Part shown: positions 15,740-35,553 of the stretch, in pieces | Layout of the letters: the number at the start of each line of letters is the position of its first letter | How positions within the stretch are numbered: the stretch's first letter is position 1 | NCBI GenBank assembly: GCA_963800615.1 | Contig: CAWDBO010000021.1 | Coordinates: 214,423-278,422, forward strand | Length of the DNA: 64,000 nucleotides | Direction of reading: 5' to 3' | Origin: an uncultured Chloroflexia bacterium | GTDB lineage: Bacteria; Chloroflexota; Anaerolineae; CG2-30-64-16 | The notes under the pieces: model-generated | What the model saw: only the letters and a program-made list of their open reading frames with translations | What the model was told of the DNA's origin: nothing | Database searches by the model: none | Translations under genes and position numbers: made by a program

Positions 15740-16637
15740 TCAGCCGGCGGCCAGCCTGGCCCGCTCGACTGCCTGGGTCAGGGCCTCCTCGACGAGCACC
15801 GGGAGCACGGCCAGGCGGTACTCGCGCGAGGCGCGCAGGACGCTGGTACGCGGCTCGGCATCGCAGAGCGCCAGCTGCGCGGCCTCGGCCAAGGTCGCCG
15901 GTGCGGGCGCTCTGCCGGCCAGGAATGCCTCCGCTTCGTGCGCCCGGACGGGGCAGGGGCCAACCGGACCCATCGCAATGGCGGCAGATGCGATCGTGTC
16001 GCCGTCGAGCACGACCTTCGCCGCGCAGTTCAGCGTGGGCAGCACGAGCGAAGGCCGGCGGCCCGCCCGGCGCCACGCGGTGCCCCACCCGCCGCCCGTG
16101 CCGCTGCCCGGGGGGATGGGGAACCGGATGTGCGTGACGAGCTGGCGGGTTGAGTCGATCCGCGAACGACCCGGGCCTGCGTACATCTCGGCGACCGGGA
16201 GCCAGCGTTCGCCCGACCGCGTCCAGGATCCGGACTTCCGCGTCGAGTGCGATGGCGATGATTGCGCCGTCGGCAGCCGGCATCGCCTGCACCAGGTTCC
16301 CCACCCAGGTAGCGGCATTCTGGATCGCGAGCGCGCCGACGGAAGCGGCCGCATCGGCGAGCGCATGAACGTGCGCTGCGAAGTACGGGTGCTCGCGCAG
16401 CGCGATGAATGGGACCGCCGCCCCGACGACCGCCCAGCCGTCGCCAATCTCGATGCTCGCCAACTCGGGGATGCGGGTGATGTCCACCAGGCACTCGAGC
16501 GTGCTGACTTGCGGCTTGCCCTTCTCGATGTCCAGCAATACGTCCGTGCCGCCGGCGACGATGCGTGCCTTGCCTTCCCAGGCCGACAGCGTCTCGACCG
16601 CTTGCTGCGCGCTCGCGGGGAAGAGGTACTGCGTCAT
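15740..16637 (-). CDS. Molybdenum hydroxylase set A, FAD-binding medium subunit (CoxM/XdhB-like); about 3 frame breaks
   Basis: [42 protein letters not shown]...ALAIQNAATWVGNLVQAMPAADG lies in ORF 15063..17438, and the C-terminal part in ORF 15740..16447. The ATG overlaps the large-subunit stop (ATGA 16634-16637). Confidence 0.8.
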
Positions 16638-18895
16638 TGCCGGTCGCTCCCCCGGATGGCGGCCAGGACGCGCTCGGGCGTGGCAGGGATGGTGCGCATC
16701 CGGCGTCCCGATCGCGCGGGAGATGGCGTTGACGATCGCCGGCGTGGAGGGCAGCATGGCCGCTTCGCCCAGGCCCTTGACGCCGAACGGTCCGAAGCGG
16801 CTGGGCACTTCGACGAGGATCACTTCGAGCTCCGGCATGGACTTGATCGTGGGCAGGTAGTAATCGGCAAAGCCGGTGGTGTGGCCGGGCAGCACCTCTT
16901 CCATCAGGGCCGCGCCGATGCCCATGAGCATCGCGCCTTCGATCTGCCCCTCGGCATCCGGCCGGTTCACGGCATGGCCCACGTCGTGCGCGGCCGCGAT
17001 CCTCAGCACGCGTACCTCGCCTGTCCGCAGGTCCACCTCGACCTCGGCCACGTGCGCGCCGGTGACGAAGAGGGGTGCGTACTCGGGCCTGGTATCCGGC
17101 GGGAAGTAAGGCGACAGGTCGAAGACGCCGCGGATGCGGCGCGGCTTGCCCGAGCCGGTCGAACTCGGCCGCCACTTCTGCCAGGGCGACGCGCTCGCCG
17201 TCCGCCGAGCAAACGCCGGCGCCCTGGAAGGCCAGCGACGACGGGCGCCCGGTCGAGCAGCTCCGCGGCCACTCCCAAGACTTCGTCGCGCAGGTTCGGT
17301 ACACGCCCTCACGACGGCCCCGCCCACGAAGTAGGTCGCCCGCGAGGCGCCCTGGATGCCGCTGTCGGGCGCGCGCGCCGTGTCCGCGTTGACCAGGGAC
17401 ACCAGGTCCCGGTCGACGCCGAGCGCCTCCGCGGCCATCTGCGACCATCGTCGTGTTGGTGCCCTGCCCGTAGTCGGCCGCGGTGCAGTAGACGACGAAC
17501 GAGCCGCCCGGGGCGGATCTCCGCGTGCGCCTCAACCCGCAGGTCGCCGGACTTGCCGAACCGGTACCACATCCCGGCAATCCCAACCCCCCGACTGTAG
17601 GGGCGGGGTTGCCCCGCCCACTCTGCCGGCATCCGCGATCATGGCCTGGTAGTGCGGCCGGAGCGCCTCGAGCACCTGCTCGAAGCCCAGCGACTCGGCC
17701 ACCGGATAGCCGAGGAACGACGGCTCGCCGTCGTGCAGCCGGTTCCGCAGCCTGAATTCGAGCGGATCGATCCCGAGCTTCTCGGCCAGCTCGTCCAGCG
17801 CGCACTCGGTGGCGAAGCAGGCCTGCGCGGTGCCGAATCCGCGGTACTGCCCCGCCTTCGGCCCGTTCGTGTAGACCGTCCGGGCGTACGCATCGACGGC
17901 TCGCCAGCGGTAAGGCCCGCCGCTGGCGGTCACGGCATAGTTCGGGATGTATTGGCCGGAAGAATCGTACGCGCCCGTGTTGGCGTCGATCCGCAGCTGG
18001 ATTGCCGCCAGCCGTCCGTCCCGGCTCGCGCCGATCTTGTTTCGGACAACGTAGGGATGCCGCTTCGGCGTGGCGAGGAAGGCTTCGTGGCGGGAATAGG
18101 CCAGCATCACCGGGCGGCCGGGTCGCATGGGTCATCAGCGCGGTGGCGACGAAGGGCCAGGGGTCCTGCCTGCCGCCGAAAGAGCCGCCGGTGGGCGGCA
18201 CGACGACGCGCACGCGATCACGCGGCAGGGCCAGGCTTGCCGCGATGTACGCCTGCTGGTAGTACGGCTCGTGCGCGCCGCCGGTGACGGTTAATCTTCC
18301 CTCTTCGTCGTAATAGCCCAGCAACGCCTCCCGCTCGAGCGCGCTGTGCTCCAGGAACGCGGTCCGGTACTCCGTTTCCACGATCACGTCCGACCTTGCC
18401 AGCTCGCCGTCGACGTCGCCGTGCTGGAGCTGATAGCGCGTCAGCACGTTGGCGTCTCCGGCGATGTGTGGCGCGCCGGGCTGCAGCGTCTCGTCGACGT
18501 CGAACGTATGGGGAAGGACCTCGTACTCGACCCGCACTGCGGCCGCGGCCGCCTTCGCCGCCTGGACCGTCTCCGCGACGACCAGGGCCACCGGCGCGCC
18601 TACCATGCGGACGGTCGATCCCACCGGCGCGAGCACCGGCTCCTCCTGGCTGTAGTCGCCGAGCCCGTTCTCGCCGGGGATGTCGTCTGCGGTCAGAACT
18701 GCCACCACGCCGGGAACCTCACGCGCAGGGCCGGCATCGAGCGACAGGATCCTGGCATGGTGATGTGGGGAGCGGACGACCACGCCCCTGCAACATGCCG
18801 TCCACGCTCATGTCCTCGACGTAACGCGTCGCGCCCGTCACCTTGCCAACGAGTCGGTTCGCAGGGCGCTGCCGCCGATTGTCAGACGCGGCCGT
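16634..18895 (-). CDS. Molybdenum hydroxylase set A, molybdopterin-binding large subunit (XDH/aldehyde oxidase family); about 6 frame breaks; 5' boundary uncertain
   Basis: [92 protein letters not shown] and [23 protein letters not shown] are spread over at least 5 ORF fragments. The tail [21 protein letters not shown] ends at 16634. Confidence 0.8.
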
Positions 18896-18897
18896 GT

Positions 18898-18920
18898 AGG
18901 GGCGAGGTAACCTCGCCCCT
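18898..18920. repeat. Perfect 10-bp stem / 3-nt loop hairpin AGGGGCGAGG-TAA-CCTCGCCCCT at the small/large subunit junction
   Basis: Read directly from the sequence. Confidence 0.9.
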
Positions 18921-19410
18921 AGCGGTCGTCCCTCTCGTGCCGAGCGCATCCGCCGCGCGGCCAGCTCGACCGCCTCGGCGATCTTCTTGTACCCCGTACA
19001 GCGGCACAGGTTGCCTTCCAGCGCGTCGACGATCTGCTCGCGGGTGGGCTCGAGCGTCCGGTCCAGCAGGCCCTTGGCTGCCATCAGCATCCCGGGCGTG
19101 CAGTACCCGCACTGGACCGCGCCCACCTCGATAAACGCCGTGCTGCAGCGGGTGGAGCTCGCCGCCCTTCGCCAGCCCTTCGACGGTCTCGCACGCGCCT
19201 CCCGGCTGCCTTTGCAACCGGGGTCAGGCACGACCGGACGGGCCGCCCATCCAGCAGGACCGTGCACGCGCCGCACTCGCCCTCGTGATCGCAGCCTTGC
19301 TTCGTGCCCGTCAGCCCGAGCTCGGCGCGCAGGACGTCCAGCAGCGGCCGTGCAGGATCGACATCGACCGCCGCCGCCGCGCCGTTGAGCAAGAACTCTA
19401 TGTGCGCCAA
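18921..19410 (-). CDS. Molybdenum hydroxylase set A, [2Fe-2S] small subunit; 1-2 frame breaks; 3' boundary uncertain
   Basis: [10 protein letters not shown]...[23 protein letters not shown], then [18 protein letters not shown] and [13 protein letters not shown] prefer TTG 19410 (AGGAGAG upstream) over ATG 19431, which lies inside a hairpin arm. The frame reads through a 23-nt hairpin into the large subunit. Confidence 0.75.
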
Positions 19411-19421
19411 TCTCTCTCCTG

Positions 19422-19485
19422 ATCCCCTCATCCCCTCATCCCCGCAGGCGGTCGTAGGCTTGCGGGGATGAGGGGATGAAGGGAT
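19422..19485. repeat. Long hairpin built from GGGGATGA octamers (25-nt arms, 1 mismatch, 14-nt loop); terminator-like, downstream of hisC
   Basis: ATCCCCTCATCCCCTCATCCCCGCA ... TGCGGGGATGAGGGGATGAAGGGAT. It lies 13 nt after the hisC stop. Related copies are at 38980-39024 and 49063-49120. Confidence 0.85.
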
Positions 19486-19497
19486 TGTGTGTCTGAA

Positions 19498-20602
19498 TTA
19501 TGCCCAGGCTGTCTGCAGGACGGATTCGAGGGTCGCGATCAGCCGGGCGTTCTGGCTCGGGTCGCCGACGGTGATGCGGAGATGCTCGGGCAGATCGTAG
19601 CCGGTGCAGGGGCGGACGATGACCCCGCGTTTGAGGAGCTCCGAATAGACGGTCTTGGCATCGGGTCCGAGGTGCGCCAGGACGAAGTTGGTCTGGCTGG
19701 GGACGTAGCCGATTCCCAGCCGGTCGAACTCCCGGTAGAGGAACTCCCGGCCTTCCGCGTTGACCGCGACCGTGCGCTTCAGGAATTCGGGGTCCTTCAG
19801 CGCGGCCTCGCCCGCGATCTGTGCGAGCAGGTTGACCGGGAAGGACTCGGAGCAGGACCGCATCGGCGCGAGCAGTTCGGCGGATGCGAGCGCGTAGCCC
19901 ATCCGGATGCCCGCGATCCCGTATGCCTTGGAGAAGGTCCGCAGGATGCAGACGTTCGTCCGGCCCTCGAGGATGTACGGCATCGTGTCGGGGTACGCCG
20001 GGTCGTCCACGAACTCGTAATACGCCTCGTCGAAGACGACGATCGTCGTGTCCGGGACATGGCGCATGAACTCGGCGACCTCCTGCCGGGTAACGATGCT
20101 GCCGGTCGGGTTGTTCGGGTTGCAGACGAAGATCAGCTTCGTCCGCGGGGTGATGGCGCGGCGCCATCGCCCGGAGATCGAACCGGAGGTCGGGCGTGAG
20201 GGGCGTCTTCACCAGCCGGGCGCGCATCACTGCCGCGCTGATGTCGTACACCGGGAAGGTCGAGCAGCTGGTCAGCATCTCGTCGTCGTCGTTGAGATAG
20301 GCGACACACAGCTCGCGAATGACGCCGTCCGCGCCGTTCCCGATCCGGACCATCTCCGCATCGACCCCGTGGTGCGCAGCGAGCGCGTGACGGAGCCGGT
20401 ACGCCTGCGCATCGGGGTAGTAGTTGAGATTCGGCAGCGCCTCCATCAGCGCCTGCACCACGACCGGCGACGCCCCAATCGGGTTCTCATTGGAAGCGAG
20501 CTTGATAACGTCCGTCAGCCCGTACTCGCGCTGCACCTCTTCGATCGGTTTCCCCGGCACATACGGCCGGATGGCGCTCAGACCACGTTGCGGCTTGACC
20601 AT
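19498..20602 (-). CDS. hisC: Histidinol-phosphate/aromatic aminotransferase (class II, HisC family); one frame break ~20160
   Basis: IKLASNENPIG, YPDAQAYRLRHALA, TPRTKLIFVCNPNNPTGS (restored by dropping one C near 20156-20165), FDEAYYEF, and the PLP lysine in RTFSKAYGIAGIRMGY. Confidence 0.8.
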
Positions 20603-20683
20603 TGATCCACCTCAAGTACTCGCACAAGCGGATAATGTAGCGCAATGGACTTCGCCAGACTCGCCGGAGCGCGCGTTCAGCCG

Positions 20684-22913
20684 TCAGCCCGTGCAGGTGA
20701 TGATTCGAACGTCGCCGGCCAAGGCGCCGGCCGGAGAAGCAAACACCGGGTTCAGATCGATCTCGGCGATTTCAGGGTACGCGAAGGGCAGCGCCGACAC
20801 CCGGACGATGATGTCGGCGAGCGCCGCCAGGTCGACGGGCTTCCGCCCCCGCGCGCCCGCCAATATCCCGTAACCCCGCAATGAGCGGATCATTTCGCCC
20901 GCCCCTGCGTGATCCACCGGCGCCACCCGCAGCGCCACGTCCGAGAGCACCTCGGTGAAGATGCCGCCCAGTCCGAACGCGACGACCGGCCCGAACTGGG
21001 GATCGCGCGACAGGCCGACGAGGACTTCCTGGCTGTCTCTGATCATCGGGTAGACCACGACGCCGGCAAACCGCGCGCCGCTCGCGCGCTGGCGAATCCC
21101 CCGGAATGCCTCCCGCGCCCCCGCCTCGTCGTGGATGCCGACCACGACGCCCCCCCGCTCCGACTTGTGGAGGATGTCGGGGGAAACGACCTTCATCACC
21201 GACGGGTAGCCGACGCCGCAGCAGGCGGCCGCCGCCTCGTCTTCGCTCTCGGCCCACATGAAAACCGGCGTGGGGATGCCGTTGCCCGACAGCCACATCA
21301 TCGCATCGGGTTCCAGGATGGGGCTTGCCGGGAGAGCGGGCCGCCCAGCGCCGGGCATGACGTCCGCCCGACCGGCGCTCCGTGGGCCGGCACGATGCTC
21401 CGCCAGCCGAGCCATGTTCGCAAGCGCCATGACCGCGCGCTCGGGCGTCGGGAAGTTGACGATCCCGTTCGCGGCCAGGTACGCGGTGGCATCCGCGGTC
21501 ACTTCCTCTGGCAGGAAGCTCGTCACGACCGGCCTGCCCGTCGCGCGGGCCGCGTCGACGATCCCGCGGGCGATGGGCAGGGAATCCAGGTAGGGCGGCG
21601 CGATGTTGATGGCTAGAGCGGCATCGAACGGCGCGGCCACAGGGATCACAGAGCGCTCAGAGGCTTTTGAGGAGAGACGAGAGCCAGAAGAGCCGCTCTC
21701 GCTCTTCGCATCCTCTGCGCCCGTCGGTGTCCTCTGTGGCAAGAATCGCGCGCAACGTCTCGCGGTAACCCCGCTCGGTCCCCTCCACCGTCAAGTCGAT
21801 CGGGTTTTTGAGCGCGGCGTGCGCCGGGAGGAACTTCGACAGCGCGTCCTTGATGCCCGGCCCCGGCTCGGCCACATCCAGGCCCACCGCCTCTGCCCTG
21901 TCGGCCGCAAGGATGCTCGGGCCGCCGGAGTTCGTGATGATCGCGACCCGCCGGCCGGTCAGGGCGGGCAGGCCCGTAAATGCCCGGCAAAGGTCGAACA
22001 TCTCCTCGGCCGACGCCACCCGGAGCGCTCCGCACTGCTGCAGCGCCGCGTCGTACACCGCGTCGCTGCCCGCCAGCGAGCCGGTGTGCGACAGGGTGGC
22101 CCGCTGGCCCGATTCCCCGCGTCCGGCCTTGATGACGACGACCGGCTTGACCGCGGCGCAGCGCGCCGCGGCCGCCATGAACGCCCGGCCGTCGCTCACC
22201 GTCTCGATGTACACGCAGACGATGTGCGTCTGCGGGTCGCCGGCCAGGTAATCCAGGAGGTGGACCTCGTTGACGTCCGCCCGGTTGCCGTAACTGACGA
22301 ACTTCGAGATGCCCAGGCCGTCGCGCTTGGCCCAGCCCAGCAGCACCCCGGCGAACGCGCCGCTCTGCGAGATGATCGCGACGTGGCCCGCGGGCGGCAG
22401 CGTCTCGAGCGTGGGCGCGAGGCGGTGCGCGGTGTTGATGAGGCCCGCACAGTTCGGCCCCACGATCCGGATGCCGTGGCGCTTCGCGACCGCCATGAGC
22501 TCCGCCTCGCCCGCCTTGTTGCCCATCTCGCCAAAGCCGGACGATATGACCACCGCGGCCTTCACGCCGTTCTGCCCGCACTCTTCCAGGACCGAGGCAA
22601 CCGTGTTCGCCGGCGATGCGATCACCGCCAGGTCGACGGGCAGGCCGGAAGCCCCGATGCTCGTGCTGCCGGCGACCCCGAGCGCGCCCTGGCCCTTCGG
22701 GTTGACCGCGACCACGTCCCGGTACCCGCCCGCGAGCATCTGGCGCAGCAGCTCATACCCGAGCTTGCCCTCGCCGACCGAGCCGACCAGCGCGACCGCC
22801 CGGGGCGTGAAGAGCGGCTCGAGGGAGACCCCCGACACTCCGACGACCTCCGAGGTTTCGGAAACCTCGGAGGTCTCGCGAGTCGTAGAGGTCGGTTGCC
22901 GACCCCCGCTCAT
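20684..22913 (-). CDS. ADP-forming acetyl/acyl-CoA synthetase, fused alpha-beta type; frame change inside a ~100-nt inverted-repeat insertion at ~21640-21740
   Basis: CoA-binding N-terminus LFTPRAVALVGSVGEGKLGYELL, GIRIVGPNCAGL, IISQSGAF and the phosphohistidine loop SHTGSLAGS, followed by the ATP-grasp part GYPSVMKVVSPDILHKSERGGVVVGI...IAEIDLNPV. The true start could be downstream of the palindrome at 22845-22875. Confidence 0.8.
22845..22875. repeat. Perfect 31-nt palindrome GACCTCCGAGGTTTC-G-GAAACCTCGGAGGTC
   Basis: Read directly. It translates as TSEVSETSEV at the annotated 5' end of the synthetase ORF. The 12-mer arms recur at 59873-59921, and in variant form at 46151-46181. Confidence 0.95.
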
Positions 22914-23517
22914 CGTGTCTCGACCGCCGCAGCCGCGTTGAACGCGAACAGGTTGCGCTCCGCGCCCCGCTTCCACCGGCCTGCGATCACCTCGGCCATG
23001 GCCTCGGGCGACAAGATCTCCCCCAGCCGGGTCCGGGCCGCGGCGACGCCCAACGTGTAGACATTGTCCGGCACGGGCTGCCCCTCGTACTGGGGCAGCC
23101 GATCGGGGTCGATAACGACCGGCTGAGCGCCAGCTGCCCGCACCTGTTCGAGCACCGCCTCCAGCGCGGGATACGCCGCCTTGCCGAGCATCACGGCGGC
23201 TGGCTGCCACACGTAGGCGAACAAGACGAAGTCCCCGCCGGGCTTCAGGTACCGCACGGCCTTGAGCGACTCCGAGACCTCGGTCGCGATCACCAGGTCC
23301 GCGCCCTGTTCCGGGATGGCCGGGCCGGGATCGCTCGGTGACCCCGGCGGCCGATGCGGCACTGCGCCTTGACGAACCCGCCGCGCTGGGCCATGCCCTT
23401 GGTGGGGTAGAAGCTGACCGGGAGGCCGGCGCGGAACGCCGTCTCGGTGATGATCTCGCCGATGGTCAGAACGCCCTGCCCGCCGACGCCCACGAGGTAG
23501 ATATCGAAGGTTTTCAT
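22910..23517 (-). CDS. iorB: Indolepyruvate:ferredoxin oxidoreductase, beta subunit; one frame break ~23340
   Basis: MKTFDIYLVGVGGQGVLTIGEIITETAF...YPTKGMAQRGG, then ADLVIATEVSESLKAVRYLKPGG. ATGA overlaps are present at both ends (23514-23517 and 22910-22913). Confidence 0.8.
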
Positions 23518-25425: not shown

Positions 25426-25438
25426 TTTCGTCCTCCGT

Positions 25439-26807
25439 TCAGATGGGTGCGAGCGCGTTTTCCATCGTCGGCAAGAACCGCCCGCACCCCGGCGCCGCCA
25501 CGATCTCGCCTTCCCACAGCACCGGCTGCCCGCGCTGGAACGACATCTCGGGCCAGCCGAGCACGGTGCGCCCCGCGTAGAGCGTGTAGCCGACATTGGT
25601 ATGCTGGTTTTCATCCGTCAGGGTGACGGGGCGGTTCGGGTCGAACACCACGAGGTCGGCATCGCTGCCCGGCTGGATCGTGCCCTTCCGCGGATACAGG
25701 CCGAAGATGCGCGCCGGGTTTTCGCAGAGCGCCTGCACCAGCCGCACCGGGCCGATGTGCCCGCCGTTCACGCCGTCGTCCCACGTCACGGGCAAGCAGC
25801 GTCTCGATCTGCGGCGAGCCGAAGCCCTGCGCGAGGAAGTCGCCCTGCGCGTCCTTCTTCTTCGGCGCGTGGTCCGACGCGACCACCGACAGGGTCCCGT
25901 CCGCCAGCCCGCGCCAGAGCGCCGCGTTGTCCGCGGCCGTCCTGATCGGCGGGCCGATCTTGGCGTATGCGCCCCGGGCGTCGAGGATGTCCTGGGTCAG
26001 CGCAAGGTACTGCGGGCATGACTCGGCGTACACCTTCCGCCCCTCGGCCTGAGCCTGCCTGATCGGACGCAGCACCCGGCCCGCGGTGACGTGCGGGATG
26101 TACAGGGGGCAGCCCGCAACCTCGGCCAGGCAGATGGCGCGGAAAACGGCTTCTTCCTCCAGCGCGGCCGGCCGCGAGGCATTGAAATACTTCGCCGACG
26201 CGTTCGGCCCCTTCAGGTACTTGTCCTCCAGGTAGTCGATGGCGCCGCCGTTCTCCGCGTGCACCATCGCCATGCCCCCTCGCTCCGCCAGCAGGTCCAT
26301 CGCCTTGATCAGCTGGTAATCGTCGGTGTACCACCCCTGTTTGAGGTAGGTCAGGAAGAACTTGAAGGTCCGGACACCCAGCTCCATCACGCGCGGGATC
26401 TCGGGGACCTGCCGGGGGGCTTCAAACATGCCGCCGTGCAGCCCGAAATCCAGCGGCGAGCGCCGGCTCGCGTCCTCCAGCATCTCGCTGACCTTGCCCT
26501 CCAGCGATTCGCCGGTCCGGGCGTAGGCGAAGTGCAGCACGGTCGTCGTGCCGCCATACGCAGCACACCGCGCCGACGCCTCGACATCGTCGAGATACAC
26601 GGGGTGGACGTGGACGTCGATCACGCCCGGCATAACGTACCGCCCGGTCACGTCGATCACCCGCCGGGCACCTTCCCGCGGCAGCCCGGCTGCAACCTCC
26701 GCCACCTTGTCGCCGCGCACGCCCACGTCCGCCCGCCGCATCCCTGCGCCGGTGATGACCGTGCCGCCCGCCAAAATCAAGTCATAAGGGACCACGCGAC
26801 CCTCCAT
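25439..26807 (-). CDS. Cyclic amidohydrolase (D-hydantoinase/dihydropyrimidinase family); one frame break ~25790
   Basis: PGVIDVHVHP metal motif; GVRTFKFFLTY (position of the carboxylated lysine); MVHAENG; VASDHAP. The C-terminal beta-domain is in ORF 25439..25795. Confidence 0.8.
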
Positions 26808-26834
26808 CCGTTCCGTATCCGTTTCTCCGTTCGG

Positions 26835-29174
26835 TCATCCGTTGCGTCGTATCACCTGCAGCACGCGCTCCGGCGTCAGTGGGATCTCGCGCACCGGCTT
26901 CCCGATCGCGTCGCTCACTGCGCTGGCGACCGCCGGCGCGGCAGGCGTCAACGACGGCTCGCCGATGCCCTTTGCGCCGAACGGACCGATGCCCGTCCCC
27001 GATTCCAGGAGGATGACCTGGACGGGCGGGAAGTCCATGCTCGTCGGCAGCAGGTACTCGGCCAGCGACGGCGTCTGGATCCGCCCCTGCTTGACCTGCA
27101 TGTCCTCGAGCAGGGCGTAGCCGAGCCCCTGGTTCGCCCCGCCGGCCAGCTGTCCTTCGGCCGCGGTGCGGTTGATCGCCCGGCCGACGTCGTGGCACGT
27201 GACCGCCTTCAGCAGCGTGACCTCGCCCGTTTCCATGTCCACCGCGACCTCGCAGGCCATCGAGCCGAACGTGAAGTCGGGGAAGACGCGGCCCTGCCCG
27301 GTCTCGGGGTCGAGCGGCTCGCTGAACGGCGCCTGGAAGAGCGCCAGGTTGGCGAGCGGCAGGCCCTCCGCCGCGCAGCGCCGCACCAGCTCCGCCAGCG
27401 GCACGCACTCGGACGAGCTGCGCGGGCCCCCGCCGCTTCCCTTGACGAACGCCATCCCATCCGCCAGGTCGATCTTCTCCGGCTCCTCTTCGAGCAGCTG
27501 CGACGCCCGCGTGATGAGCACCTTGCGGACCGCGTTGGCTGCCTGCAGCGTGGCGTTGCCCGACATATACAGCTGCCGGGTCGCAGTGGAGGTGCCGGAC
27601 AGCGGGGTCAGCGCGGTGTCGGTGTGGTAGACCGTCACCCGGCTCAGGGGCACGCCGAGCACCTCGGCCGCGATCTGCGCGAGGCTGTTCACCTGGCCCG
27701 CGCCCAGGTCGGGCACGCCCGCCCGCACCACCACCGTCCCGTCCAGCTCGACGCCGACCCAGGACTGGCTCGTGTCGTGCAGCCAGGTGATCCGGCCGTA
27801 GCTCTGGAAATACGAAGAGAAGCCCTGCCCGATGCGAATGTGATCCGCCCACGGCTCGGTCTTCGGACCCAGCGCGGCGAGCGCCCTCGTCGCCGACTCC
27901 TCCAGCCATGCCGCAGTTTCGACCGGCTGCCCGGTGGAGGTCGTATCTCCAATGTGGAGGTAGTTGATCCGCCGCAGCTCCAGCCGGTCCATGCCCAGCG
28001 CATCCGCGATGCAGTCCATCTGCCCTTCATAGGCGAAGGCTGCCTGCGGGCCGCCGAAGCCCCGGAACGCGCTGGTGAACGGGTTGTTCGTCGCCACCGC
28101 AACCGCGTCGACGAACAGGTTGTCCACCCGGTACGGTCCCGGCGCCATGATGGCCGAGTAGAGCAGGACGTAGGGACTGAGGTACGGGTAGGCGCCCGAA
28201 TCGGCCACGATGCGGATGTGGCTCGCGGTGATCTCGCCGTTCCGCCGGACGCCGGTCCGGTGAGTGATGACCATCGGGTGGCGCTTCGAGTGCGCCAGGA
28301 TCGATTCCTCGCGGGTGAAGACCAGGCGGACAGGCCGCCCGGAGGCCTGGACCAGCAGCGCGAGGAAGATTTCGACCGTGATGTCTTCTTTGCCGCCGAA
28401 CCCGCCGCCGACGAACGCGCCCTGCACCCGGATCCGGTTCTGCGGCACGTCCAGCGCCTTCGCCACGCTCCGGAAATGCTCGATGACCTGGGTCGACACC
28501 CGCAGGTTGATTACCCCCTGGCTGTCCAGCCACCCGACGCCTGCTTCCGGCTCGATATAAGCGTGGTCCTGGTAGGGCACCCGGAATGTGTTCTCGACGA
28601 CCAGGTCCGCCTCGGCAAAGCCCCGCTCCAAGTCGCCCTTGCGGATCTTCCACTTGCCGACCTTGTTGTCCGGCGCATGCAGCACCGGCGCGCCCGGCTT
28701 CAGCCCGTCCTCGGGGTCGAAGATCCCCGGCGTCCGTTCGTACTCGATCTCGACCAGCCGCAGCGCGGTCTCGGCGATCGCCTCCGTCTCGGCCGCGATC
28801 AGCGCGATCGGCTCGCCGACGAACCGCACGCTGTCGATGGCAAGCACCGGCGCGTCGGACTGTGCGCGCTGCGCCTGGCCGGTCTGGCCCGGCATGTCGG
28901 TCACCAGCCGCGCCTTCGGCAGGTCCTGCCAGGTGAGGACGCAAACGACGCCGGGCAGCGCCCGCGCCTTGCTGACGTCCAGCCGGACGATCCGGGCCGA
29001 AGGCTCGGTGCTGCGGAACACCTTGGCGTGCAGCATGGCGGGCATCGTGAAATCGCCGGCATAGACGGTCGCGCCGACCGCCTTGCCCAGCGCATCCACC
29101 CGGCGCAGCGGCTTGCCGATAACTTTCAGCTCGGGCAGCTCGACGGGAGGGAGCGGCTTGACCTTGACGCTCAT
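26835..29174 (-). CDS. Molybdenum hydroxylase set B, molybdopterin-binding large subunit (XDH/aldehyde oxidase family), intact
   Basis: About 780 uninterrupted codons within ORF 26835..29810: IGKPLRRVDALGKAVGATVYAGD, AFVGGGFGGKED, FRGFGGPQAAFAYE, GAGQVNSLAQIAAE, ACEVAVDMETGEV and GPFGAKGIGEPS. The ATG at 29174 overlaps the small-subunit stop. Confidence 0.9.
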   Translation of the reverse strand: MSVKVKPLPPVELPELKVIGKPLRRVDALGKAVGATVYAGDFTMPAMLHAKVFRSTEPSARIVRLDVSKARALPGVVCVLTWQDLPKARLVTDMPGQTGQAQRAQSDAPVLAIDSVRFVGEPIALIAAETEAIAETALRLVEIEYERTPGIFDPEDGLKPGAPVLHAPDNKVGKWKIRKGDLERGFAEADLVVENTFRVPYQDHAYIEPEAGVGWLDSQGVINLRVSTQVIEHFRSVAKALDVPQNRIRVQGAFVGGGFGGKEDITVEIFLALLVQASGRPVRLVFTREESILAHSKRHPMVITHRTGVRRNGEITASHIRIVADSGAYPYLSPYVLLYSAIMAPGPYRVDNLFVDAVAVATNNPFTSAFRGFGGPQAAFAYEGQMDCIADALGMDRLELRRINYLHIGDTTSTGQPVETAAWLEESATRALAALGPKTEPWADHIRIGQGFSSYFQSYGRITWLHDTSQSWVGVELDGTVVVRAGVPDLGAGQVNSLAQIAAEVLGVPLSRVTVYHTDTALTPLSGTSTATRQLYMSGNATLQAANAVRKVLITRASQLLEEEPEKIDLADGMAFVKGSGGGPRSSSECVPLAELVRRCAAEGLPLANLALFQAPFSEPLDPETGQGRVFPDFTFGSMACEVAVDMETGEVTLLKAVTCHDVGRAINRTAAEGQLAGGANQGLGYALLEDMQVKQGRIQTPSLAEYLLPTSMDFPPVQVILLESGTGIGPFGAKGIGEPSLTPAAPAVASAVSDAIGKPVREIPLTPERVLQVIRRNG

Positions 29175-29669
29175 CGCACGCCTCCTCGCTCGGGCGCAGC
29201 ATCCCGGAGCTTCTCGGCCGCGACCTTCACCGCCTCGACAACCGGCCCGTACCCCGTACACCGGCAGAGGTTGCCCGAAATCGCTTCCTTGATCTCTTCG
29301 TCGGTGGGTTCGGGGTTCTGATCGAGCAGCGCTTTCGCCGCGATGATCAGGCCGCCCGTGCAGTAGCCGCACTGGACCGCGCCGAGGTCCGCGAAGGCCT
29401 CCTGCAGCGGGTGCGGGTGGTCGAGCGTGCCGACGCCCGCGGGCGTCAGCACGGGGAGCCCGTCCGCCTGCCACGCGAGGGTCAGGCAGGAATTGACCGG
29501 CTTTCCGTCGAGCAGCACCGCGCACGCGCCGCAATCGCCCTTCTCGCACCCGTTCTTCACGTCGGTATAGCCGAGGTCCCTGCAGCGCCTGCAGCAGCGT
29601 GATATTCGGCGTCAGCGCGGCGTAGTGGGTCCGGCCGTTGACGTTGAGCGTGATGACTTGTGGTTTCAT
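29171..29669 (-). CDS. Molybdenum hydroxylase set B, [2Fe-2S] small subunit; one frame break ~29575
   Basis: MKPQVITLNVNGRTHYAAL, then GCEKGDCGACAVLLDGKPVNSC, VQCGYCTGGLIIAAKALL and GNLCRCTGY. An ATGA overlap with the FAD subunit lies at 29666-29669. Confidence 0.85.
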
Positions 29670-30546
29670 TGGAGCGACCCTCCCGGCGCTACCTGGGACA
29701 GGAGCCGCCGGACGATGACCTCGGCGATGTGCCGCCGGTACGCCGCCGATCCCGCGGATGTCGTCGATCGGGCTGGTGTGCGCCGGCCGCCAGGTGCGCC
29801 GCCTCCGCAATCAACTCGCCCGTCCACTCGTGCTCGCAGAGCAGCCGTCTCGGCCTCGGCGACGCGGATCGGGCAGGGTGCGACCGCGCCGAGCGCGATG
29901 GCCGCGGCGTGGGCCCGTCCATCCCCGTTGAACTCGGCGGTCACGGCCGCGCTGATCACCGAAATGGCATCCGCTCGTCGCAGGCCGAACTTGTGAAACG
30001 CGCCGCCGCGCTTGTTACTCACGGGCCAAAAGAGGCGGGTGAGCAGCTCGTCCGGCCGGCGAACCGTGCGCCGGACGCCGGTGAAGAACTCGGTCAGCGG
30101 CACGCACCTCGTGCCCTTGACGCTGGCGAGCTCCACTTGCGCGCCGAGCGCGAGCAGCGGGGGTGCGGTGTCGGCGGCCGGCGATGCGTCGACCAGGTTC
30201 CCGCCCACGGTCGCCCGGTTCCGCACGAGCGGGCTGGCGAACACGGCCGCCGCCTGCCTTAACGGCCGGGCGTGCTGAGCAATGAGCGGGTTCCGGAGCA
30301 ACTCCGAAATGGTTACTCCCCCGCCGACGGAAACGCGTCGCACCGTCACGGCTCAAGGCGATGCCCTGCAGCTCGGGCAGGCGCCCGATGTCGACCAGGA
30401 CCGGCGGCCCCGCGAAGTCGTCGCGCAGCTCGACCAGCACATTGGTCCCGCCCGCGATGGCCCGGGCGTCCGGCCCGTATTTCTGCCAGCAGTTCAAGCG
30501 CCTCGTCCAACGAGCGAGGCCGGAGTAGTTCAAATTCGGGAAGCAT
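29666..30546 (-). CDS. Molybdenum hydroxylase set B, FAD-binding medium subunit; about 5 frame breaks
   Basis: MLPEFELLRPRSLDEALELL, ARAIAGGTNVLVELRD, ASPLVRNRATVGGNLVDASPAADTAPPLLALGA and IDDIRGSAAYRRHIAEVIV are spread over ORFs 30346.., 30015.., 29666.., 29689.. and 26835... Confidence 0.8.
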
Positions 30547-31096
30547 GATCGCCTCGCACACAAGACGGACTAACACAAAGGCACGAAGCTACACGAAGGT
30601 TTAGCGGACTTCGATCAGGCTTGGTGTCTTTGTGTCTTTGCTGTTGTGCGTTGGCGGCCGCCAGCACGGCTCGCACGATGCTGACGTAACCCGTACACCG
30701 GCACAGGTTGCCGCGGAGATAGTGGCGCACCTGGTCTTCGTTCGGCTGCGGGATTTCCGCCAGCAGGCTCTTGGCGGTCATCAGCATGCCCGGCGTGCAG
30801 TAGCCGCACTGGAACCCGGCATGGTCGATGAACGCCTCTTGCAGAGGGTCCAGCGTTCCGTCCGCCGCCTGCAGGCCCTCGACCGTGCGGATGTCTCTCC
30901 CGTCGGCAGCCACCGCAAGCACGAGACAGGCGAGCACGGGCTTGCCGTCCATCAACACCGTGCACGCGCTGCACTCGCCGATGCCGCAGCCGTACTTGCT
31001 GCCGGTCAGCTGCAGCTTCTCGCGCAGCACGTTCAGCAGCAGCTCGTTCGGCCCCACCCAAACCCGGTGCGGCCGCCCGTTCACGCATAACGTCAC
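30530..31096 (-). CDS. Molybdenum hydroxylase set C, [2Fe-2S] small subunit; 3' end uncertain (reads through a low-GC spacer)
   Basis: VTLCVNGRPH..., [40 protein letters not shown] and [13 protein letters not shown]. The last ~35 codons, down to 30530, translate the spacer element and are probably not genuine. Confidence 0.8.
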   Translation of the reverse strand: MTLCVNGRPHRVWVGPNELLLNVLREKLQLTGSKYGCGIGECSACTVLMDGKPVLACLVLAVAADGRDIRTVEGLQAADGTLDPLQEAFIDHAGFQCGYCTPGMLMTAKSLLAEIPQPNEDQVRHYLRGNLCRCTGYVSIVRAVLAAANAQQQRHKDTKPDRSPLNLRVASCLCVSPSCVRGDHASRI

Positions 31097-31144
31097 CGCC
31101 CGCTGTTGGTCGGGTTCGAGGGTCAGCGAAGCTGCCCTACCCGC

Positions 31145-31178
31145 AGACCTGACAGGTTTCGAAAGACCTGTCAGGTCT
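31145..31178. repeat. Paired palindromes AGACCTGACAGGT / AGACCTGTCAGGTCT around TTCGAA
   Basis: Read directly. It lies in the spacer between the set C FAD and small subunit genes and has the same architecture as the AGAAACC(A/T)GGTTTCT pairs. Confidence 0.9.
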
Positions 31179-32103
31179 GGGACGCGCTCTGGACTGCCCC
31201 CGCCCGCTCCCACGCGCGGATCAGCGCATCGTGCGCCATCACCCGGACGATTTCGCGCCGGTACCACGCCTGTGGACCGCACGTCGTCGATCGGGCTGAT
31301 CTCCTGCGCGGCAAGCTCGGCCGCCTGCGCTGCAAGCTCCGGTGCGAACCGGCTTGCCCGCCAGCAGCGCCTCCGCCTGGACGGCTCGGACCGGGGTGGG
31401 TGCGACCGAACCGAAGGCGAGCCGGGCGCTCACGATCCGTCCGCCTTCGCGCTCGATGCACACGGCTGCGCTCGCCTTGGCAATGTCCGCCGCCACCCGG
31501 CCCATCTTCAGGAACGCGCCGCCGGTGCTCGGTCGCAGCAGGCCGCGCAGTTCTTGCTCATTGCCGGGCAGAAGGATCGCCGTGATGATCTCGCCGGGCT
31601 GAAGTGCGCTGCGGCCGGGACCCACGAAGAACGCGTCGATCGGGATGCGGCGCTCGCCCTGCGGCCCGAACACCCGCACCTCCGCCCCGTAGACGAGCAG
31701 CGCGGGCGCGGTGTCCGCCGCGGGCGAGGCGTTGCCGATATTCCCGCCCAGCGTCCCCATGCTCTCGACCTGCCGCGTGCTAAACGCGTCGCACGCTTCG
31801 GCAAGCGCCGGGAAATGCCGGCGCACGAGTGGATCGGATGCGATCTCCCCGATCGTCGTCATCGCGCCGATCACGAGTCCTTCGGACGTTCCCTCGATGC
31901 CGCTACAGCGAGGGGATGCCCCGCAGGCTCACCACGTGACCCGGCGCGCTCCGCTCCATCTTCATGTGTACGAGCACGTCCGTCCCGCCCGCCATGAGCC
32001 GCGCGTCGTGCTTCAGCAGCAGCTCCGACGCCTCGGCCAGCGTCGCCGGCTCGTGATACGTGAACTCATTGACGAGGATGTGTGTGTTGGTTGCCTGGCT
32101 CAT
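31171..32103 (-). CDS. Molybdenum hydroxylase set C, FAD-binding medium subunit; about 2 frame breaks
   Basis: MSQATNTHILVNEFTYHEPATLAEASELLLKHDARLMAGGTDVLVHMK, STRQVESMGTLGGNIGNASPAADTAPALLVYGA and IDDVRSTAWYRREIVRVMAHDAL. The ATG overlaps the upstream stop (ATGA 32100-32103). Confidence 0.8.
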
Positions 32104-34506
32104 GAGCGCACCTCCTCGTCGGCCGAGAAACCAGGTTTCTTCGAGAAACCTGGTCTTCTTGAGCGCCGCAAGGATTTTCTCCGGCGTGATCGGCAGCTCG
32201 TAGAACCGGACGCCGATCGCGTTGCAGATCGCGTTTGCATACGCAGCCGCCACCGGATTGGTCGCGGCCTCGCCGATGCCCTTCGCGCCGAACGGCCCGG
32301 TCGGCTCGTAGGTGTGCGCGAAGTAGGTCGTGATGCGCGTCGATGCAGGGCGTTTCCTCGAACCCCGGGATCTTCGCATCCACCATCAAGCCCTTCGAGA
32401 GCAGCTGCCCCTGCTCGTCCCAGCCGTTGTCCTCCAGCAGCGCGTACCCTGCGCCCTTGGAGAGCCCGCCTTCCAGCTGCCCCGCGGCCATGTCGGGGTT
32501 GATCACCGTGCCGCAGTCGCTCCCCATCGCCGCCTTGCACCGTCCGCACCTGGCCCGTCCAGGTGTCGACCTCGACGTCGAGGAAGACGGACACGTAGGC
32601 GGGCGGGCACGACGTGGGCCGGTAGCTCACCACGCTCGCGATCGTCTTCCAGCTTTCGGTCCAGCAGCGGGTGGCGACCTCGCCGATCGTCATGTGCTTG
32701 TCGGGGATCGAGGGCACGTAGAGCACGCCCTGCCCCAGCTTCTCGTCCATCTTCAGGCTCAGCGCCTCGGGCTGCACGTTCAGGAACCGCGCCGCGGTCG
32801 CGAACAGGTCGGCCTTGGCCTCCTGCACCGCCTTGACCGCCGCGCCGCCGCCCGCGTACACGCCGCGGGTCGCGTGCGTCACCACGTCGTACACGGTGGT
32901 CCGCGTGCCGGCCGGCGACAGGTTCACCTTGTCCAGCGGCACGCAAAGCCCCTCGGACACCAGCTTGGCGATCGCCTCCAGCGTGCCGCCGCCATGGTCC
33001 ATGAGTGCGGTGATCACGTCGATCGAGCCGTCCTGGTTGATCTTCACCATCGCGCCCGAGTAATCGATCACATCGCCCGGCTGCGGCGCGCCCGCGCTCG
33101 GACGTATGGAACCCGCGCGCCATCCCCACGCCCCGCCGGTACCGCCCTTCTCCCGCAGAAACCAGGTTTCTGCCAGAAACCTGGTTTCTTTCGGCGTCCA
33201 TCCCCATGATCTCCGCGCCCGTGTGCAGCAGCTCGGGCACGCCGTCCGACCGCACGATCGACTTCACCAGCGGACCCTGGCCCCAGAAGGTCTCGCCTTC
33301 GCCGATGTAGTTCTTCAGCCGGAGGTCGATCGGGTCCAGCCCCAGCTTCTCCGCCAGCTCGTCCATCAGCGACTCGACCGCAAAGGTCACCTGGGGGTTG
33401 CCGAAGCCCTGCATGGCGCACGACGGGACCTTGTTGGTGTAGACCGCGACGCCGTGATACTTGATGTTCGGCAGCCGGTAGAGCGAGACCAGCCACCCGA
33501 TGCACACGCCGAGGTAGGAGTACGCCTGCACGATGTGCGCGCCGATGTCCGCGAGGAGTTCCATCTCCGCGCCGAGCAGCGTTCCGTCCTTCTTCGCCGC
33601 CAGCTTGAGGCTGATCTGCGCCGGGTACTTGGTGTGCTCGTTCATGTCCTCTTCGCGCGTCAGCGAGAGGCGAACCGGCCGCCGGGCCTTCAGCGCCAGC
33701 GCCGCGCAGATCGGGAGGTTGGAGTTCATCTGGATGCTCGAGCCGAACGTGCCGCCGACCGGGATGCGCCGGACGTCGATCTTGCTCAGCGGGATATTGA
33801 AGATCTGGCCCAGGAGGATGCGGACGTTGTGGATCGATTGGGTGGTGGCCCAGAGGGTGAGGCCGCCGTCAGGCTCGGGCTGGCACACCGCGGTCTTCGG
33901 CTCGAGCTGCGCGTGGTAGATCTTGGGCGTCTTGAACGTCCCCTCCGACGACGATGTCGGCCTCGGCGAACGCCGTTCGCAGCGTCGCCCTCGGCGATCG
34001 TGCGCTCGCACGCGACGTTGTTCACCACCGGGATTTCGCCGGTCGCCGTGCCAGATGGTGTCGTAGATCGCCGCCGCGCCCGGCTGCATCGCCTCGACCG
34101 GGTCGGTCAGGACGGGCAGCACCTCGTACTCCACCTTGACCGCCCGGGCGGCCTGCTCGGCCAGCTCCTCGGTTTCGGCAGCTACCGCCGCCACCGCCTC
34201 GCCCATCCGCCGCACCTTGTCTGCCAGCACGTAGTGGTCGCGGTGGAGCGCCGAGGGGATGGTGACGATGCGCTCGTTGTAGCAGGTGTGCGGGACGTCG
34301 TCCCAGGTGATGACGACCGCGCCCATCGCCTCGGCCGCGCTCGCGTCGACGCTGACGATGCGGGCGTGGGCATAGGGGCTGGCGACGATGCGGCCGTGCA
34401 GCATCCGGGGCAGGTAGATATCGGAGGAGAACTGCTCCTGCCCCGTGACGCGCGCGATCCCGTCCTTGCGCTTCGTCACCTTCCCCAATACGTTATACTC
34501 TTGCAT
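32100..34506 (-). CDS. Molybdenum hydroxylase set C, molybdopterin-binding large subunit; about 5 frame breaks and palindromic insertions
   Basis: MQEYNVLGKVTKRKDGIARVTGQEQFSSD, IPVGGTFGSSIQ, AMQGFGNPQVTFAVE, ALMDHGGGTLEAIAKL, VEVDTWTGQV and TGPFGAKGIGEAATNPVAAAYANAI come from ORFs 32503.., 32100.., 32066.. and 31903... The position of the real stop relative to the element at 32125-32158 is uncertain. Confidence 0.8.
32125..32158. repeat. Palindrome pair GAGAAACCAGGTTTCT / GAGAAACCTGGT-CTTC
   Basis: Read directly. It sits at the junction between the large and FAD subunit genes of set C. Confidence 0.9.
33157..33189. repeat. Palindrome pair AGAAACCAGGTTTCT-GCC-AGAAACCTGGTTTCT inside the set C large-subunit coding region (33 nt)
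   Basis: Read directly. It translates in frame as RNQVSGRNLVS between ...MGMDAE and AGEGRYRRGVGMA. Confidence 0.9.
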
Positions 34507-34610: not shown

Positions 34611-35543
<933 letters not shown>

Positions 35544-35553
35544 CTATTCCTCC

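Follow-up and report, generated by a model that had tools for sequence, protein, structure and literature searches.

Three diverged xanthine oxidase family enzymes in a conserved same-strand gene cluster of uncultured Anaerolineae

The DNA analyzed here, a stretch of 64,000 nucleotides from the genome of an uncultured Chloroflexia bacterium (GCA_963800615.1, contig CAWDBO010000021.1, positions 214,423 to 278,422; hereafter the window), contains three gene sets for molybdenum hydroxylases of the xanthine oxidase family, designated A, B and C. All three are located on the minus strand, at window positions 19410..15740 (A), 30546..26835 (B) and 34506..30530 (C), and frameshift-aware threading of same-genus orthologs reproduced these limits from an initial annotation of the same stretch. 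The sets are part of a long series of genes on one strand (Table 1), which probably represents a catabolic cluster that is conserved in an uncultured Anaerolineae family and encodes three functional, anciently diverged enzymes. In our numbering of genomes and contigs, the window is G000:C21:214423-278422, and the offset of 214422 converts contig to window positions.

The source genome G000 comprises 6.0 Mb in 43 contigs with a completeness score of 75%, and the G+C content of the window is about 67–70%. Close relatives of its proteins are found in metagenome-assembled genomes (MAGs) of uncultured Anaerolineae/Anaerolineales (Chloroflexota). Clean genes were obtained neither from lists of open reading frames (ORFs) nor from the G+C content at third codon positions, since frame errors made gene calling by these measures unusable. 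Both were dropped, and a frameshift-tolerant protein-to-DNA dynamic programme was used instead, with which proteins of the same-genus genome G007, colinear with window positions 5866-40079, were threaded through the window DNA to obtain gene limits and frame-error counts. A same-family genome, G012 (97% complete), in which the hydroxylase orthologs are intact, served for further comparison. Domains were called with Pfam and NCBIfam models, and the curated equivalog cut-offs of NCBIfam were used as the test for family assignment.

Architecture of the three hydroxylase gene sets

The molybdenum cofactor (Moco) domain MoCoBD_1 (PF02738) was detected at all three loci with 140–255 bits (window 17742-18450, 27960-28676 and 33307-33945), and FAD_binding_5 (PF00941) was found at about 16212-16634, 30020-30485 and 31566-32067. 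Across all three sets, NCBIfam models for small subunits scored 155–195 bits and those for FAD subunits 174–224 bits. With S for the small [2Fe-2S] subunit, L for the large Moco subunit and F for the FAD subunit, Pfam, NCBIfam and threading all gave the domain orders S-L-F for set A, F-S-L for set B and L-F-S for set C, as originally annotated. Overlapping start and stop codons in the form of ATGA, also seen before, were located at four junctions, namely A large/FAD (16637), B FAD/small (29669), B small/large (29174) and C large/FAD (32103), which suggests translational coupling.

The description of all three enzymes as three-subunit hydroxylases holds for set B, which has three separate genes, but neither for set A, in which S and L are fused, nor for the relatives of set C, in which the FAD and FeS parts are fused. 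At the S/L junction of set A, both in the window and in G007, one uninterrupted frame connects the [2Fe-2S] domain with the N-terminal motif of the large subunit. Set A thus consists of an S-L fusion and a FAD subunit. In set C, FAD and [2Fe-2S] domains are encoded by one ORF in G007 and G012 and are covered by a single tblastn high-scoring segment pair in the MAG loci L014, L015, L017, L019 and L023. Fusions of this kind are common: more than 5000 length-matched homologs of this FAD-FeS protein were found, and the best 120 all contain the two domains together. In the window, a hairpin (GACCTGACAGGTC ... GACCTGTCAGGTC) in the linker between the two domains (31145-31178) places a TGA in the FAD frame. 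The arms of this hairpin occur in 7 copies in the genome, and at this position the linker of the relatives is open and unrelated. Given the error rate of the window, the FAD-FeS protein of set C may be either fused or split there.

Set C also contains copies of a second type of repeat. The palindromic 15-mer AGAAACCWGGTTTCT is present in 128 copies in the genome, and pairs of it translate in frame to ...RNQVSGRNLVS... or ...KPGFSKKPGF.... One such pair is located in a variable surface loop of the large subunit of set C (window 33157-33189) and another one at the 3' end of the same gene (window 32126-32158). The corresponding loop of an unlinked paralog on contig C34 (about 4.4–6.0 kb) holds a pair as well (PERNQVSDRNLVSPG), and a further pair was observed within the acyl-CoA synthetase gene of G007 (L011).

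Frame errors in the genome assembly

Threading of the G007 orthologs revealed at least 27 frame-breaking indels in about 11 kb of hydroxylase genes, nearly all of them one-base insertions outside homopolymers. The true coding frames switch every few hundred bases, the large subunit of set A is spread across all three minus-strand frames, and only the large subunit of set B is encoded by an intact ORF (779 aa). Between window positions 5800 and 40100, the window has about one extra base per 350 nt compared with G007, chiefly random insertions of C or G outside homopolymers; over the 32.7 kb that could be aligned, extra single bases numbered 94 in the window vs 42 in G007. The genes for PyrB, IclR, IorA, the CoA synthetase, HisC and MttB contain frame errors as well. 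After frame correction, full-length proteins without any in-frame stop were recovered, with 75–91% identity to G007 in all segments.

Such a density of indels could in principle indicate that the hydroxylase sets are decaying pseudogenes with real frameshifts. We consider this very unlikely and infer that the frameshifts stem from a noisy long-read consensus in the assembly rather than from gene decay, because G007 and G012 carry intact orthologs and identity to G007 is high throughout, because neighboring genes (pyrB, hisC, Ior and MttB) are affected as well, and because the insertions are random single bases in a genome that scores as only 75% complete although its contigs are long. With approximately one frame error per 350 nt, gene calls from the G000 genome need correction before use.

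Divergence of the three sets

Pairwise identities between the large subunits are 35% for A and B, 30% for A and C and 32% for B and C. The FeS domains are about 52–53% identical between the sets and the FAD domains 35–42%, and the large subunits of A and B each share 38–40% identity with an unlinked paralog at C21:558k. A maximum-likelihood tree was calculated from 40 large subunits, which came from the window, the genomes G007 and G012 and further phyla and included six solved structures as well as XdhA, XdhD and PaoC of E. coli. The sequences of the solved structures were copied from alignments, so that nicotinate dehydrogenase (NDH) is represented by its N-terminal half only and the aldehyde oxidoreductase MOP lacks 38 residues; R. 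capsulatus XdhB, bovine xanthine dehydrogenase (XDH) and Qor are not part of the tree. In this tree, A, B and C each fall into a separate clade of their own, always with 100% support. A and B belong to a superclade with NDH and MOP (support 99), and C is placed elsewhere in a loose group (80–81) with 4-hydroxybenzoyl-CoA reductase (4-HBCR), XdhA, PaoC and XdhD. The nearest outside relative of B, with 41% identity, is from Tectomicrobia. Approximately unbiased (AU) tests rejected exclusive clades of A+B+C (p = 5e-7) and of B+C (p = 7e-4).

The position of all three sets on one strand within 19 kb might suggest a recent tandem duplication followed by shuffling. This origin is hardly conceivable in view of the low identities, the results of the AU tests, the closer relationship of A and B to unlinked paralogs and the relative of B in another phylum. 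Even after frame correction, the large subunits are far from near-identical (30–35% identity), and they do not fall into one characterized orthologous group, since no NCBIfam equivalog cut-off was reached and the tree separates three clades. The initial annotation had already described the large subunits as clearly diverged and the sets as not recent tandem duplicates. Both statements stand, and the identities, the tree and the AU tests are stronger evidence for them than the gene order from which the latter had been drawn.

As an argument for independent origins, gene order alone is weak, because fusions and varied subunit orders are common in this lineage and occur likewise in E. coli. Other hydroxylase paralogs of G012 have the architectures F-S+L, F+S-L or F,S,L. 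The three orders in the window can also be written as rotations of one cycle (S-L-F, F-S-L, L-F-S), which is true for 2 out of the 20 possible choices of three distinct orders and is thus not significant. Altogether, about 15 loci for large subunits are present in G000 and 10 in G012. Those of G000 include two more sets of the xanthine oxidase family just past the right end of the window (G000:C21:282236-301522), which brings the number to five in about 70 kb of this contig.

Active-site motifs and family membership

The motifs quoted for the large subunits in the initial annotation, GGSFGGRQD, GGGFGGKED and GGTFGSSIQ as well as YRGFGTAQ, FRGFGGPQ and MQGFGNPQ, were all found. The catalytic glutamate of the GxGE motif (bovine Glu1261, CoxL Glu763) is conserved in KGLGEA (A), KGIGEP (B) and KGIGEA (C), which align with KGVGES of CoxL and SGVGEL of MOP. 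Each of the three enzymes combines Moco domains and the catalytic Glu with a part for two [2Fe-2S] clusters and a FAD part, as is typical of the xanthine oxidase family, and the large subunits align over their full length to the XdhA, PucD and 4-HBCR models and to solved structures.

Around the active site, the three sets differ from each other. Set B has the XDH/NDH-like motifs GGGFGGKE and FRGFGGPQ. Set A has His at the position of the Gln that faces the Mo in most family members, and set C shares with E. coli XdhD the exchange of the usual Arg for Gln (MQGFG). In bovine XDH, Glu802 and Arg880 are substrate-binding residues. The Glu802-type position is occupied by Glu in B (within GGGFGGKE), by Gln in A and by Ile in C. 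The column that holds Arg in NDH and MOP, which we take to be the equivalent of bovine Arg880, contains residues of the Tyr/Asn/Gly type in A, B and C, in an alignment that did not include a bona fide XDH. These differences suggest that A, B and C may act on three different substrates.

A role as CO dehydrogenase finds no counterpart in the sequences. Neither the AYxCSFR loop of form I CoxL, the absence of which had been noted initially, nor the AYRGAGR loop of form II was matched in a six-frame translation of the whole genome. QYRGFG, AFRGFG and AMQGFG align with the CoxL loop in the three sets, and TIGR02416 scored 223–270 bits vs a cut-off of 991. The best scores with XDH-type models were 532 of the required 784 bits for B (PucD), 478 of 916 for C (E. 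coli XdhA) and 474 of 784 for A (PucD). For set A, the best NCBIfam models were those for fused Se-dependent XDH (TIGR03311, 601/830) and for MOP-type enzymes (NF045668, 590/1100), both below the cut-off, and TIGR03313 reached 367 vs 1102 bits. The glyceraldehyde dehydrogenase models likewise remained below their cut-offs, as did the 4-HBCR models TIGR03194 (alpha; 410–478 vs 995) and TIGR03195 (beta with [4Fe-4S] insert; 80–131 vs 405, with a good match over the first ~115 positions only). Thus, A, B and C are new, uncharacterized members of a well-known enzyme family.

One or more of the sets could be xanthine or hypoxanthine dehydrogenases for purine breakdown, similar to those of E. coli ygeV-ygfT or B. 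subtilis puc. The XDH-like motifs of B with the catalytic Glu, the identity of the best NCBIfam models (PucD for B, XdhA for C, Se-dependent XDH for A) and the proximity of a cyclic amidohydrolase and an aspartate carbamoyltransferase (ATCase) family gene are in line with such a function. However, the scores are far below the equivalog cut-offs, the residues in the putative Arg880 column differ, no gene for uricase, allantoinase, guanine deaminase or a purine permease was seen in the cluster, and the paralogs on contigs C34 and C24 look at least as XDH-like. We regard purine breakdown by A, B or C as unlikely.

Organization and conservation of the gene cluster

On the minus strand, the genes are arranged in the order IclR, PyrB, set C, set B, amidohydrolase, IorA, IorB, CoA synthetase, HisC, set A and MttB (Table 1), and most of the spacers from IclR to MttB are shorter than 30 nt.

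Table 1. Genes of the cluster in window coordinates, listed in the direction of transcription.
Feature	Position	Strand	Remarks
IclR-family regulator	35553..36346	-	cluster head; frame errors present
PyrB, aspartate carbamoyltransferase	34611..35543	-	TIGR00670 366 bits vs 237; 3 frame errors; start 9 nt after IclR stop
Set C, large Moco subunit	32100..34506	-	~799 aa, 7 frame errors; MQGFGNPQ, Gln for usual Arg
Set C, FAD then [2Fe-2S] domain	30530..32103	-	one fused protein in all relatives examined
Set B, FAD subunit	29666..30546	-	~291 aa, 5 frame errors
Set B, [2Fe-2S] small subunit	29171..29669	-	~165 aa; ATGA overlap at each end
Set B, large Moco subunit	26835..29174	-	intact 779-aa ORF; GGGFGGKE, FRGFGGPQ, catalytic Glu in KGIGEP
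Dihydropyrimidinase/hydantoinase-like cyclic amidohydrolase	25439..26807	-	455 aa, 1 frame error; TIGR02033 387.5 vs 393
IorA (25419..23526) and IorB (about 23520..22910), indolepyruvate/arylpyruvate:ferredoxin oxidoreductase	22910..25419	-	IOR_alpha on C-terminal part of the protein
ADP-forming (NDP-forming) acyl-CoA synthetase, fused alpha + beta	20684..22832	-	frame errors present
HisC-family (histidinol-phosphate/aromatic) aminotransferase	19436..20602	-	2 frame errors; TIGR01141 330 vs 277, scored on G007 ortholog
Set A, fused [2Fe-2S]-Moco subunit	16634..19410	-	~921 aa corrected, TTG start at 19410, ~10-13 frame errors, 79% identity to G007
Set A, FAD subunit	15740..16637	-	298 aa; start in ATGA overlap with fused-subunit stop; XdhB-like 174 bits vs cut-off 310
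MttB-superfamily methyltransferase	14182..15634	-	directly downstream of set A; assigned to neighbouring cluster

G007 shares the order of the block from IclR to set A, and so do six MAG loci (L014, L015, L017, L018, L020 and L023) that are about 70% identical to the window. All relatives examined have C next to B. The block of G012 is rearranged, with C and B still together, and this genome contains a second full five-gene copy of C+B (G012:C2:398000-416000, L041; 57–73% protein identity) that has no amidohydrolase, Ior or pyrB genes beside it. The constant adjacency and the duplication as a block mark C and B as a single unit. The independent recruitment of the three enzymes, which had been proposed initially, is therefore only partly supported. 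An ortholog of set B was detected in three of seven same-genus genomes searched, and we class the cluster as accessory and not as a proven mobile island. Its earlier interpretation as an N-heterocycle or aromatic degradation island agrees with the context of tightly spaced genes on one strand with an IclR regulator at the head and catabolic neighbors, and judging from this gene content, degradation of an aromatic or N-heterocyclic compound is plausible.

The cyclic amidohydrolase appears to be active, as its metal and carbamyl-lysine motifs (DVHVHP, FKFF, VHAEN and SDHAP) are present. That it serves as the PyrC of an ordinary pyrB-pyrC pair is unlikely, with 387.5 bits for hydantoinase vs at most 216 bits for dihydroorotase and a better PyrC candidate elsewhere. 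Every genome searched has PyrB as its sole canonical ATCase, so that pyrB is probably a housekeeping gene. In G012, an ortholog of the amidohydrolase gene is located directly upstream of the only canonical pyrB and overlaps with it (G012:C8:172892-175298; L046 6892-9298), far from the hydroxylase genes. The only XdhC gene of the G000 genome was found at C35:47210, next to a MocA-like gene (C35:47-50 kb) and another hydroxylase.

Comparison with characterized enzymes and gene clusters

The heterotrimers CoxMSL, XdhABC and PaoABC are well-known representatives of the enzyme family (PMC7759655). The closest precedent for the organization of the cluster is the ygeV-ygfT region of E. coli K-12, where several xanthine oxidase family enzymes with differing gene orders are encoded within about 24 kb, interleaved with the hydantoinase gene hyuA, the carbamoyltransferase gene ygeW and the carbamate kinase gene yqeA. 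E. coli xdhABC has the order L-F-S like set C, ygfM-xdhD combines a FAD subunit with an FeS-Moco fusion like set A, and paoABC is ordered S-F-L. Differently ordered and partly fused hydroxylase genes beside genes for a hydantoinase and a carbamoyltransferase thus have a direct precedent in E. coli. However, A, B and C are not orthologs of the E. coli proteins, as they stay below the respective NCBIfam cut-offs and form separate clades. The Anaerolineae cluster contains genes for an aminotransferase, an indolepyruvate/arylpyruvate:ferredoxin oxidoreductase (IOR) and an ADP-forming CoA synthetase in place of ygfK, ssnA and purine permeases, and its carbamoyltransferase is a canonical PyrB and not a knotted YgeW (39–42 bits).

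The solved-structure matches of all three sets are distant. NDH from Eubacterium barkeri (3HRD) gave the highest summed scores for large and medium chains (310+203 bits for B, 276+194 bits for A) and belongs to the same superclade as A and B. In nicotinate fermentation, NDH acts upstream of a cyclic amidohydrolase, enamidase. In contrast to A and B, the Mo subunit of NDH is split into two chains, its Arg in the motif ITRAT is replaced in A and B, and no 6-hydroxynicotinate reductase was seen in the cluster. The alpha subunit of 4-HBCR from Thauera aromatica (1RM6) was the best single-chain match among the solved structures for B (342 bits) and C (280 bits), but the alpha model yielded only 478/995 and 410/995 and the beta model 130/405 bits, and the grouping of C with 4-HBCR in the tree is weak. 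When the solved structures were queried with the most XDH-like paralog, on contig C34, 4-HBCR and NDH were again on top. Set B further shares with CoxMSL the gene order FAD, small, large and the layout of three cofactors. Apart from the missing signature loops, no group in the tree is more distant than CoxL. Several paralogous L/M/S sets with different specificities in one genome are also known from Sulfolobus tokodaii (glyceraldehyde oxidoreductase isozymes GAOR1-3; PMC4726530). There, one M/S pair is shared among the L subunits, whereas each set described here has its own FAD and FeS parts, partly in fused form.

For set A, D. gigas MOP (1SIJ/1VLB) is the best full-length structural match (415 bits), and like the fused subunit of A, it unites the FeS and Moco parts in a single chain. 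By analogy to MOP or PaoABC, the sets, and A in particular, could be aldehyde oxidoreductases that convert aryl-acetaldehydes or other aldehydes to acids. The FeS-Moco fusion is common to MOP and MOD, the two best solved-structure matches of A (415 and 409 bits), A is sister to MOP in the tree (SH-aLRT 90), and A adjoins the aminotransferase/IOR module for aromatic amino acids. Unlike MOP, however, A has a dedicated FAD subunit, the gene of which overlaps the stop codon of the fused gene. The score with NF045668 is little more than half of the cut-off, and as MOP forms a long branch, its placement in the tree is unsure. Overall, an aldehyde as substrate appears rather unlikely.

Proposed functions and possible pathways

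Judging from their family, each of the three enzymes would oxidize or hydroxylate its substrate at the Mo cofactor with oxygen derived from water. The conserved Glu would act as base, and electrons would be passed via the two [2Fe-2S] clusters to FAD. As a pair, C and B probably catalyze successive steps of one pathway. Set A may be tied to the module of aminotransferase, arylpyruvate:ferredoxin oxidoreductase and ADP-forming CoA synthetase, which would convert an aromatic or heteroaromatic amino acid to an aryl-acetyl-CoA or aryl-acetate. The hydantoinase-like amidohydrolase is a likely candidate for the ring-opening (lactam-cleaving) step after hydroxylation.

Several observations weigh against three functional enzymes acting together in one catabolic cluster. 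None of the nine domains reached a curated NCBIfam equivalog cut-off. No XdhC or MocA gene for cofactor maturation is present in the window. The frame errors are unevenly distributed, with 0 in the 2.3-kb large subunit gene of set B (26835-29174) vs 5 in the adjoining 0.9 kb (29666-30546). Since the amidohydrolase and pyrB genes of G012 are situated away from the hydroxylase genes, the link between amidohydrolase and hydroxylases may be mere neighborhood.

Soils, sediments and digesters harbor abundant Anaerolineae, most of them uncultured, and each Anaerolineae genome contains ten to fifteen uncharacterized xanthine oxidase family enzymes. The cluster provides a defined and conserved context for three such enzymes, two of which, C and B, are inherited as a pair. 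What we know of the enzyme family itself is not changed by it, as varied and partly fused subunit genes side by side have been documented before. New are the obligate pairing of C and B and the conserved link to the aminotransferase/IOR/CoA synthetase module. The conserved context and the pairing narrow the candidate substrates to aromatic or heteroaromatic acids and the corresponding CoA esters.

On this basis, an undescribed route independent of O2 can be sketched, in which an aryl- or heteroaryl-acetyl-CoA, produced by the HisC-type aminotransferase and IOR, would be hydroxylated by the paired enzymes C and B, the ring would be opened by a dihydropyrimidinase-type lactamase, and energy would be gained via the ADP-forming CoA synthetase and possibly from carbamoyl phosphate via PyrB. 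We put forward this route only tentatively and rate its probability as low. If it exists, an indoleacetate-like or imidazole-type route would have been built from enzyme families other than those of the known iaa pathway.

In the iaa pathway of anaerobic indoleacetate degradation, a molybdenum hydroxylase of the xanthine oxidase family precedes the lactamase. With an aryl-acetyl-CoA lactam that is opened by a "hydantoinase-like" enzyme, this pathway is the closest functional analogy to the proposed reactions. A version of the route for tryptophan or indole would start with the formation of indoleacetyl-CoA by the aminotransferase and IOR, followed by oxidation at C2 to 2-oxoindoleacetyl-CoA by B and/or C and opening of the lactam by the amidohydrolase. 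The ADP-forming synthetase would recover ATP, and PyrB would be a housekeeping neighbor. Such a pathway is compatible with the genes located between the hydroxylase sets, which encode IorAB, an aminotransferase of the HisC family and an ADP-forming CoA synthetase, and with the solved structures, among which the alpha subunit of an aryl-CoA enzyme, 4-HBCR, matches B and C best. A dedicated 2-oxoindoleacetyl-CoA gamma-lactamase is known from the iaa pathway of Aromatoleum/Azoarcus, where it belongs to the ATP-dependent Hyd/oxoprolinase family (PMC5214803). The amidohydrolase of the cluster, in contrast, is of the dihydropyrimidinase type, so that the indole route would be an analogue of the iaa pathway from different enzyme families. 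Moreover, the matches to 4-HBCR are weak (280–342 bits), with TIGR03194 far under its cut-off, no genes for a B12 mutase or beta-oxidation were seen in the cluster, and the need for two or three hydroxylases is unexplained. Our literature search found no paper linking Anaerolineae, xanthine dehydrogenase and indolepyruvate. Taken together, the indole route is conceivable but doubtful.

Alternatively, the substrate could be an imidazole- or pyrimidine-type acid, for example imidazole-acetate formed via the aminotransferase, IOR and the synthetase. Two hydroxylations by C and B would lead to a hydantoin such as 5-carboxymethylhydantoin and, after ring opening, to N-carbamoyl-aspartate, from which PyrB in the reverse direction would form aspartate and carbamoyl phosphate, and carbamate kinase would finally produce ATP. 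Several features of gene organization would fit such a ureide route. The pyrB gene starts 9 nt downstream of IclR at the cluster head in G000, G007 and five other MAGs, the hydantoinase-like gene is adjacent to pyrB in G012 and a better PyrC candidate exists elsewhere. ATCase-like genes accompany hydroxylase genes on contigs C24 and C36 and in loci of three other phyla, a bona fide carbamate kinase gene adjoins two of them at C24:557418, and ygeW, hyuA and yqeA of E. coli offer a parallel. On the other hand, pyrB is a single-copy gene that is probably needed for housekeeping, and for this reason we rate the ureide route low. The hydroxylase cluster of G012 lacks pyrB and the amidohydrolase gene, and we found no description of such a route in the literature nor any report linking carboxymethylhydantoin or imidazole-acetate with molybdenum. 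An argument for imidazole degradation from the absence of the Hut pathway was rejected, since the presence of urocanase genes shows that the ordinary histidine pathway exists. In sum, the ureide route is quite unlikely for the cluster.

Elsewhere in the genome, a bona fide carbamate kinase gene (371 vs 358 bits) is located beside two ATCase-like genes and a few kb from a hydroxylase set (G000:C24:557418-566457). By its resemblance to ygeW/yqeA of E. coli, this group suggests a possible fermentative ureide pathway. A further region, G000:C36:15905-34671, comprises two hydroxylase loci, an ATCase-like gene at 22971-23945 and, at 20276-21600, a gene of the hydantoinase/dihydroorotase type.

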